Assembly (NCBI GenBank): GCA_963735525.1
Contig: CAVTLQ010000012.1
Span: 165,005-229,004 of the forward strand
Source of the DNA: an uncultured Acidobacteriota bacterium
GTDB lineage: Bacteria; Acidobacteriota; Terriglobia; Acidiferrales; UBA7541
Direction: 5' to 3'
DNA: 64,000 nucleotides
Shown here one piece after another: positions 58,198 through 59,811 of this stretch (position 1 is its first letter; each line of letters begins with the position of its first letter). Below the pieces are notes generated by a model. That model ran no database searches, was not told the origin of the DNA, and saw nothing but the letters and a program-made list of their open reading frames with translations. Position numbers and translations under genes: made by a program.

Positions 58198-58670
58198 CCC
58201 TTTAGATTTTCCTTGACAAATGTTAACTAGTATGGTATGTTATCCATGTCGACTTGCAGTGCACTATCTAGGCGGCATCCTCAGCTTTCCCGTCGGGCCG
58301 TTCCCCAGATCGTCCACGCAACTTCTGTAGGTTCGGAGCATTACGGCACAGGCGGCGAAAGCCCCATGGATTCACACGGCCACAACACCTGCTGCGCGCA
58401 GGCCATCGGCTCCTCAACGTTCCAACGTGCAAACCTGCCAACCTGCAAACATGCCTTAAGTCCTTTAGAATCCACTCTTACAAGAAATGCTCGCACCTGC
58501 CCCAATTCTCGACAAATAACTCCTTTAGAATCAAAAGGCGAGTTTGCTAAGTGCTTTAGATCTCACTCTTACGAAAAAAGCGCCTGTAACTCCTTTATTT
58601 CTCACTCTTACAAAATCATTGGACTTAAAGTCCCATCGAATCACACTCTTACGAAAAAAGGTGGAGGGAG
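58198..58670 (+). repeat. non-coding box-array module, copy 2
   Basis: boxes AAGTCCTTTAGAATCCACTCTT and variants at 58458, 58518, 58549, 58588, 58628; octamer array 58415-58454; ends CTTACGAAAAAAGGTGGAGGG. Confidence 0.85.
58213..58241 (+). promoter_or_regulatory. sigma70-type promoter heading module copy 2
   Basis: TTGACA-N17-TATGTT with TG extended -10, in an AT-rich patch. Confidence 0.75.
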
Positions 58671-58750
58671 CGTGAACGGTTTTTGTCCTCTACTTCCTCT
58701 ACCTCCTTCACGTCTTGCTCCCTTACTTCATCATTTCTCTTGAGGAAACC

Positions 58751-59257
58751 ATGACCAAACAAACGCAAGACCAATCTCGCTGTCAGCACCATGACGTTCT
58801 GAACCGCCGCTGCCGTATGCCTCGCATCGACACCCACCCCGCCTTCTGCTATACCCACTCCAAGGCTGAGCGCGAAGTCCGTGATGCCGAATTCCGCCGC
58901 AACAGGCGTGCTACCTACACGGGCAACTTCTACACCGCCACGGACGTGAACCAAGCTCTCGGCGCCGTTTTCACCTTGCTTGCCCAAGACCGCATCCCCG
59001 CCCGTGAAGCCGCCGTTCTCGCCTCCATCTCCCGGCTGCTTCTGCAATCCATCGAGGGCGTCAGGTACGAAGTCCAGGTTGCCCTTGGCTTTGTGGCTAT
59101 GAGGACCTGGTCCGCAACGTCATCAATCCTCCCCAAAGGAATCTCCCAGCTGCCTCGAACCCTTCCGGCAAAGCCTCGCCGGAAGCTGCTGCTCCCGTCG
59201 AAGCATCCGTCTCGCGCCCCACAACTGGCGCGACCCACGAACCCTCGTGTACGATGA
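58751..59257 (+). CDS. uncharacterised protein with N-terminal C-x9-C-x11-C-x2-H putative zinc finger
   Basis: [34 protein letters not shown] then helical [39 protein letters not shown]; true end may be 59286 via an indel near 59095. Confidence 0.7.
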
Positions 59258-59282
59258 ACCCCAGCCATTCCAAGGAGAGTTC

Positions 59283-59811
59283 ATGACACGACCCGCAGGA
59301 ACGTATGCCGTTTTTGAAACCTCGCAGGGCAACATTGTCATCCGCTTGCTCGAGAAGGAAGCGCCAAAGACCGTCGCCAACTTCGTTGGCTTGGCCGAGG
59401 GCGCGAAGGAATTCACCGACGAACGCACCGGCCAGAAGCAAAAGAAAAACTATTACGACGGCTTGACCTTTCATCGCGTAATTCCGGATTTCATGATTCA
59501 GGGCGGATGCCCGCGCGGCGATGGCCGCGGCGGACCCGGCTACACCTTCCCCGACGAGTTTCATCCGTCGCTCAAGCACTCCAAAGCCGGCAAGCTCTCC
59601 ATGGCCAACGCCGGACCCGGCACCAACGGCAGCCAGTTTTTCATCACCGTGGCGGCCACCCCCTGGCTCGACAACAAGCACACCATTTTCGGCGAAGTGG
59701 TCGAAGGCCAGGACGTCGCGGACAAAATTTCCAAGCTGCCTCGCGACGCAAGCGATCGGCCCGCGCACTCCGGTGACGCTGCAAAAAGTCCGCATCGAGC
59801 GCATCGCTTAA
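59283..59811 (+). CDS. cyclophilin-type peptidyl-prolyl isomerase; apparent frameshift near 59760
   Basis: [51 protein letters not shown]-terminus [15 protein letters not shown] in a shifted frame. Confidence 0.93.

Follow-up and report, generated by a model that had tools for sequence, protein, structure and literature searches.

REP/BIME elements with RAYT and the RIB/RIP elements of Escherichia coli are dispersed repeat systems. Type III toxin-antitoxin loci and CsrB-type RNAs combine a promoter, a repeat array and a gene. The Correia (NEMIS) elements of Neisseria and the CIR elements of Caulobacter are intergenic repeats with a promoter and an IHF-like site or GANTC, and the accessible part of the source gives them inverted ends and no gene (PMC2229807). 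According to the accessible parts of two further papers, the small terminase of a SaPI teams up with a phage large terminase and directs packaging from pseudo-pac sites on the chromosome (PMC6687093), and the lambda small terminase binds a multi-site region of the 200-bp cos (PMC13595911).

We describe a cassette that is scattered at dozens of sites in the genomes of soil Acidobacteria and is apparently undescribed. No published account of it was found in the openly accessible literature, which was covered mostly as titles and the starts of abstracts, and the accessible part of PMC3556154 contained nothing bearing on it. The cassette is real, widespread and outside every family tested. Our best explanation, which is tentative, is that the locus studied here is a copy of this cassette (promoter, boxes, A/G tract and zinc-finger gene), that the boxes are duplex sites for its own protein, and that it descends from a phage packaging module.

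Anatomy of the locus in the window

The window, which is the whole stretch of 64,000 nucleotides that was analysed, contained the following features.

58213..58241, + strand: predicted sigma70-type promoter with extended -10, based on the sequence and on the same-strand enrichment of promoters before arrays
58213-58218 and 58236-58241, + strand: promoter hexamers TTGACA and TATGTT with a 17 bp gap, read from the sequence
58242..58414, + strand: variable leader, without match to the leaders of other arrays
58415..58454, + strand: five octamer repeats of the CAACGTTC type, a linker present ahead of other arrays too
58457..58482, + strand: box 1, by the window matrix and the two-arm model
58517..58532, + strand: box 2, left arm only, by the window matrix
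58548..58573, + strand: box 3, by the window matrix and the two-arm model
58587..58612, + strand: box 4, by the window matrix and the two-arm model
58622..58653, + strand: inverted half-box back to back with box 5, a layout that recurs in other arrays
58654..58670, + strand: terminal A-tract and G-tract, with the G-tract degenerate here; phage contigs carry the complete tract close to terminase genes
58742..58753, + strand: ribosome-binding site (at 58742) and start codon (ATG at 58751)
58751..59286, + strand: gene for a CCCH zinc finger and helical hairpin, frameshifted near 59092; its tail crosses the cyclophilin promoter
59244..59256, + strand: native cyclophilin promoter motif, conserved in relatives without the cassette
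31795..32046, - strand: another array of the window, a member of the five-box 40/60/60/39 subfamily that has a full G-tract (G000:C12:197050, minus strand)

A sequence-only reading of this DNA had described a TTGACA-N17-TATGTT promoter and five octamers upstream of the boxes, and both were present. The five boxes started at 58457, 58517, 58548, 58587 and 58627. The periods of 60, 31, 39 and 40 agreed with that reading, but its starts were one base too late and box 2 had only the left arm. The inverted half-box formed the GACTT-A-AAGTC palindrome at 58622-58632, as had been read. The spacers, which had been called unique, were not so in the CRISPR sense because three other loci of the same genome shared the whole window-type unit at 76-87% identity. 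The comparison of the spacers with phages, which that reading had proposed, gave no convincing match (best E 0.9 over 28 bp). A CRISPR or guide array was rejected, as spacers were shared between loci, no phage spacer match was found and no neighbour recurred. The second array of the window was without a zinc-finger gene, and a promoter was predicted about 220 bp upstream of it.

The gene had been read as an ORF at 58751-59257. Its ATG and its C-x9-C-x11-C-x2-H finger were retained, but a one-base frameshift was located near 59092 relative to relatives, whose reading frame ends at about 59286 and overlaps the cyclophilin start. The frameshift is possibly an assembly error, because several genes of the window were broken likewise. 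Ordinary genes at window positions 50640, 59760 and 62700 looked frameshifted, which suggests indel errors in the assembly. A structure model (pLDDT 82) was confident for the finger, the helix and the helical hairpin, and its tail was loose. The compact helical domain of the earlier reading was present. The C-terminal tail is a recruited flank and not a domain, because its coding sequence continues across a cyclophilin promoter which the relatives conserve.

Neither box nor gene preceded cyclophilin in any of 24 relatives. The most similar locus that combines this array, gene and cyclophilin bears the name of the Ca. Acidiferrum group. The gap between a DinB-family gene and cyclophilin (window 55891-59282) was an insertion hot spot. 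The two genes are adjacent in many relatives, and the gap here carried a protease, a methyltransferase, a MetA-pathway gene and the cassette.

The box family and its linked zinc-finger gene

The genome was scanned with a matrix built from the five window boxes, and many arrays were matched. The iterated matrix gave 43 clusters, 31 of them multi-box, and 0 matches on one shuffled strand. A two-arm box model gave 140 boxes at 60 loci in the genome versus 2 in the locally shuffled genome. The window array is one copy of a genome-wide dispersed family and not a one-off locus. Boxes were about 25 bases long and formed subfamilies that varied in the right arm and in spacing, which was 40/60/60/39 in the five-box type, 50-53 in pairs and 60/31/39/40 in the window type. 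About 55 of the roughly 60 box loci were without a zinc-finger gene, which the earlier reading had not described. Under a strict rule, 24 of 29 multi-box loci ended directly in an A-tract and G-tract. Nearly all arrays were intergenic, and crude gene calls gave all four orientations to the neighbours (13, 9, 6 and 6 of 34).

Sixteen five-box units, which belong to the largest subfamily, were aligned. The box columns were about 0.8-0.99 identical, the variable spacer columns 0.2-0.5, and the lengths were fixed. The flanks were at the level of random identity and the ends were sharp. A 10-base period of spacing was found in this genome (R 0.91), versus R 0.23 in other genomes. The IHF consensus is WATCAA-N4-TTR. 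The box resembled two overlapping inverted IHF sites in outline only; 2 of 140 boxes matched this consensus exactly and 9 of 140 within one mismatch, and IHF-site repeats of the RIB/RIP type were rejected.

Several other readings of the arrays were rejected. A coding reading was rejected because the spacings of 40, 59 and 51-53 break the frame and the variation was not at third positions. Many boxes contained GAATC; a link to CcrM-like methylation was discarded, with GANTC at 0.89-0.96 of expectation and no genome-wide skew. KOPS (FtsK orienting) sites were discarded as the array strands alternated along the near-complete G126 and G072 contigs without polarity, and a dif site search gave no convincing candidate. 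The arrays produce spurious ORFs in annotation. A distinct conserved element, about 150 bp long and with one box, was present four times in one genome (L095-L098, G123:C21). This element sits in the 3' ends of similar genes, and G123 is without a family-A3 zinc-finger gene.

The zinc-finger gene (family A3) was present in six copies in the genome, one of which was partial. The family contained 2,417 clusters at 50% identity and was found in 24 of 41 relatives and in 2 of 151 genomes drawn from the phylum. Its members were annotated only as hypothetical proteins; the C/C/C residues were invariant and the H was near-invariant. A homologous sister family (profile probability 97.5%) was found in 11 of 17 genomes of family f11, often in several copies. 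From the names on homologues, we infer that f11 is Acidobacteriaceae. Neither family matched a named family in Pfam or NCBIfam. Weak CCCH-finger profile matches to Mcm10 zf-primase, WRC, DUF5763 and HGGxSTG were observed in a minority of members; the zf-primase matches (26 of 150 family members and 8 of 60 sister-family members) scored well under the Pfam cut-off. The fold searches yielded no significant match and none to a small terminase, only generic helical hairpins (Z up to 6.2), a result that speaks neither for a new fold nor for a different one. The best viral Foldseek row for the model was unnamed (E 0.011), and the best match in a sequence search of solved structures had an E of 0.12. 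In L018 and L019, a tandem pair of zinc-finger family genes was observed, the second without the finger.

We compared 47 zinc-finger loci, which were the best-scoring subset of the matches with own-genome loci included. On the same strand, a box was near 18 of them, an A/G tract near 24, a promoter before 25, and a box or tract near 31. The reverse-strand counts were 1 for the box, 5 for the tract and 4 for the promoter, and 24 control cyclophilin loci gave 0 boxes. The homologues were enriched for adjacent boxes, as the earlier reading had anticipated. This enrichment favours its proposal that the boxes would be iterated binding sites for the downstream protein. The array was downstream of the gene as often as upstream (9 and 9 in this sample), a layout absent from that reading. 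Twenty-nine of the 47 loci were without a box under the box model used, and in G123 and G248 boxes were present and the family-A3 gene was absent.

In this genome, four of the six gene copies had a box no more than about 100 bp away, and no two of the four shared a box subfamily. Over 25 genus genomes, the box count correlated with the gene count (rho 0.79, with kin not independent). The exact box pattern was present in 12 of 25 genus genomes and in 0 of 16 genomes from other families of the order, and another exact 17-mer was found in 13 of 251 class genomes, from five families.

The sister family gave a related layout. In 38 of 38 metagenome loci, the non-redundant ones among the best 80 of 525, a G-tract preceded the matched coding start by 13-145 nt, and in 3 of 38 one was found downstream. 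At f11 loci, a G-run was upstream in 19 of 26 and downstream in 2 of 26. These G-run rules were loose, since the reverse strand also matched 17 of 26 and 23 of 38. The leaders, inspected by eye, had two direct boxes and one inverted box, of which a strict rule caught 6 of 38. The G-tract overlapped the place of the ribosome-binding site and may be a Shine-Dalgarno sequence in exaggerated form. The order of promoter, boxes, tract and gene was found in three families and is likely ancestral, and the order of gene then array is a variant. No other gene recurred among the neighbours when zinc-finger and sister-family loci were compared. Gene-element linkage spans two orders.

Promoters were a further frequent part of the element. 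A same-strand sigma70 match within 300 bp upstream was found at 20 of 34 multi-box or tract-bearing loci. The controls gave 0 on the opposite strand and 1 downstream of the 34 loci, and 135 of 2,318 background windows (5.8%). Of the 32 strictest-consensus promoters of the genome, which include the window promoter, 13 were within 800 bp before a box. Near-consensus promoters followed by a GC-rich hairpin and T-run within about 30 nt and a single weak box were seen in G000, e.g. at C1:62350, C12:598805, C19:307783 and C22:161601; these loci are possibly multi-copy short RNAs. A similar promoter-hairpin layout also precedes f11 zinc-finger genes.

The strong same-strand promoters before most arrays, the promoter-array-gene order and a terminator-like hairpin in some leaders would fit arrays that act as RNA. 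They would then be promoter-driven sponges or antitoxins whose repeated sites are bound by a CCCH protein that recognises RNA, in the manner of CsrB or of type III toxin-antitoxin systems. However, the folding energy of 6 of the 16 five-box units was not unusual on either strand (z -0.8 to +1.9), and the consensus fold of all 16 was weak. Inverted boxes occur inside arrays, arrays also lie downstream of the gene, and the hairpin, where present, precedes the boxes. Rfam gave no match at gathering score in the window or on the arrays of 9 loci. We consider the RNA explanation very unlikely, and the processed non-coding RNA units suggested by the sequence-only reading were not borne out. Its remark that no named system was recognised held, as no described element or Rfam family matched. 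An Acido-Lenti-1 RNA (RF01687) was observed about 1 kb from a zinc-finger gene and off the array (L135:3032-3078).

The cassette was lineage-specifically inserted at non-shared sites. In G003, which has 59 exact boxes, 20 elements were followed. For 17 of these a flank could be placed on this genome, and 1 of 17 was at a shared site, although some flank matches may be paralogues. A second G003 element had a weak box nearby at the matching place in this genome. The dominant array layout differed from genome to genome. Such elements might be MITE- or REP-like and non-autonomous, moved by a recombinase or transposase, with the zinc-finger gene as an accessory or passenger. Each box subfamily had one gene-bearing copy and many gene-less copies, which recalls autonomous and non-autonomous pairs. 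The sharp unit ends, a GTTAAC-type motif 7-12 nt past the tract (15 of 88 rows versus 1.3% background) and promoter modules copied among loci at 84-93% identity over about 130 bp also agree with this explanation. However, no terminal inverted repeats, target-site duplications or hairpins were seen, as far as alignments of copies can show them. No neighbouring gene recurred that could move the elements, and no catalytic domain was detected in the protein. Movement as MITE- or REP-like elements is judged unlikely.

The terminal A/G tract and phage terminase genes

The A/G tract pattern was found in IMG/VR in 41 stretches, 36 of them non-redundant. A large terminase was within 2.5 kb of the tract at 12 of 36 phage loci versus 3 of 40 controls (Fisher p = 0.008; 0.03 with kin collapsed), where the control was GC-richer than the tract and the thresholds were 1e-7 for the control and 1e-5 for the tract (11 of 36 at 1e-7). 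One more tract locus, beyond the 12, had a small terminase alone. At 10 of 36 loci, a terminase gene in one or the other orientation was no more than 500 bp from the tract. Pfam was run on 85 of 137 listed ORFs neighbouring the phage tracts. An equally specified control pattern gave 3 stretches. A looser control gave 84, and the analysis covered the first 40 non-redundant of these through 86 ORFs, small ones excluded. The terminase test concerns the A/G tract and not the boxes.

Two phage contigs had a fuller arrangement. L257 carried a box-like stretch, an A-tract, a G-tract, a 130-residue ORF and a large terminase, and L274 carried box-like sequence, an A-tract, a G-tract and then a terminase. 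The A-tract with G5AG5TA was over-represented in phage contigs (L264-L304 and L257; 41 versus 3 stretches), and this motif may mark packaging starts in diverse phages.

No zinc-finger homologue was found in phages, plasmids, IMG/VR or PHROGs, nor in the tract-bearing phage loci. The sister protein had seven weak viral matches (E of about 3e-4 among the candidates). The exact box pattern gave 12 stretches in IMG/VR. Eleven were inside coding genes of AT-rich viruses and were judged chance matches, and the sole intergenic match (L079) was beside head genes. The zinc-finger protein had no terminase match in Pfam, NCBIfam or PHROG, and no similarity to an ORF of this genome that we take to be of DUF5681 type. 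The portal PF04860 was absent in 5 element-rich genomes. Terminase was found in 2 of these 5, in unrelated elements without tracts; therefore, no resident packaging machine was recognised. PF03354 was not found in this genome, which is 83% complete. A gene transfer agent or PICI was rejected on the lack of PF04860 in the 5 genomes, of PF03354 here and of a linked integrase. Two small integrated elements (L042, G000:C15:142300-148800, and L044, G008:C2:474600-477000) had a large-terminase-like gene without a PF04860 match in the genome.

Duplex-DNA binding was indicated by the conserved, partly inverted boxes, the fixed spacing and the lack of an RNA fold. The protein is the candidate binder because the only linked gene encodes a nucleic-acid-binding finger. 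We lean slightly towards binding of the boxes, as DNA, by the zinc-finger protein. The protein would oligomerise via the helical hairpin and bind the boxes, and the bound protein would repress its own promoter and occupy the gene-less copies. The A/G tract beside terminase genes suggests descent from a packaging start, and the cassette would descend from a pac/cos-like site with a small-terminase-like binder. This packaging ancestry is a serious possibility, which we hold with reserve. Most speculatively, a bound site would let the large terminase of an infecting phage start packaging there. Transduction would then spread the cassette and its flanks, much as happens when SaPI small terminases act at pseudo-pac sites. 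Transduction as the present mode of spread is doubtful. A site-plus-binder cassette is the simplest account, and the packaging reading leaves the strong promoters of the gene-less copies unaccounted for. A bolder form is improbable: a sub-kilobase selfish element with a pac-like site and a small-terminase-like binder, in dozens of copies, that makes infecting phages package host DNA. It would be a capsid-less gene-transfer system or a packaging-decoy defence, with thousands of specificities.

The cassette might also belong to a host regulatory or chromosome-organising network without phage ancestry. The zinc-finger proteins would then act as bridging proteins or as repressors under autoregulation, and the G-tract would have grown out of a ribosome-binding site. 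Recombination would have spread the gene-less arrays, which would serve as decoys or as architectural sites. The boxes and their spacing are kept in each copy while the spacers saturate, the sister-family G-tract abuts the start codon, and no viral homologue of the protein was found; all three agree with a host network. However, a core regulon would not be expected to show the patchy presence (12 of 25 genus genomes), the non-shared sites and the lack of any orientation preference relative to adjacent genes. The G-tract in gene-less copies is longer than a ribosome site needs, and the tract is associated with phage terminase genes. We regard a host network as somewhat unlikely.

An R-loop primer is formed at a G-tract in mitochondrial CSB II and in ColE1. 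The cassettes could by analogy be dormant replication origins, in which transcription into the G-tract gives an R-loop primer, the boxes are iterons and the Mcm10-like finger is the initiator. The order of promoter, boxes and G6AG6 fits an origin, as do the weak zf-primase matches, but these matches lie far below the cut-off. No helicase, Rep or plasmid context was found. An origin is highly improbable.

Significance and comparison with known systems

Even when read cautiously, the results describe a protein family without a name, comprising more than 2,400 clusters, and the family of cis-elements that goes with it. These elements hold a large share of the strongest-consensus promoters of the genome, in a highly abundant soil lineage, and the pairs of protein and site are compact and open to direct tests. 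If the packaging link is true, the cassette would be a new route of gene flow or defence without resident phage genes, and the A/G tract would be a usable packaging-start marker in uncultured phages.

The C-x9-C-x9..11-C-x2-H spacing is shared with the Mcm10 zf-primase, WRC, DUF5763 and HGGxSTG fingers, but the helical hairpin lies outside those models. Promoter, repeat array and gene are found together as in type III toxin-antitoxin and CsrB systems. In contrast to these, the repeats of the cassette are spaced, partly inverted and unstructured, and no toxin domain was found. Like REP/BIME-RAYT and RIB/RIP, the cassette is built from modular repeats that are dispersed between genes, and the copy number of one linked gene family follows theirs. 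Unlike in REP/RAYT, the boxes are not hairpins, the units are cassettes with a promoter and a polar end, and the protein is not a HUH transposase; the HUH tyrosine transposase domain of RAYT was found in none of 150 and 60 members of the two families in Pfam and NCBIfam. The cassette is intergenic and promoter-bearing as are Correia and CIR elements, and many boxes contain GAATC; it differs from them in its dedicated linked gene and in that no terminal inverted repeats, TA ends or stem-loop were seen.

A further likeness was to the packaging modules. The cassette has no integrase, replicon or island, and its zinc-finger protein has no detectable similarity to small-terminase families. It also differs from SaPI and lambda cosB in having several paralogous cassettes per genome and a strong promoter on gene-less sites. 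However, like these modules as the accessible parts of the sources describe them, it places a small putative DNA-binding gene beside a multi-box site of about 200 bp, with more sites around the chromosome (PMC6687093, PMC13595911). Its terminal tract is enriched near phage terminase genes. By this analogy, the cassette would work like the SaPI and lambda packaging modules.
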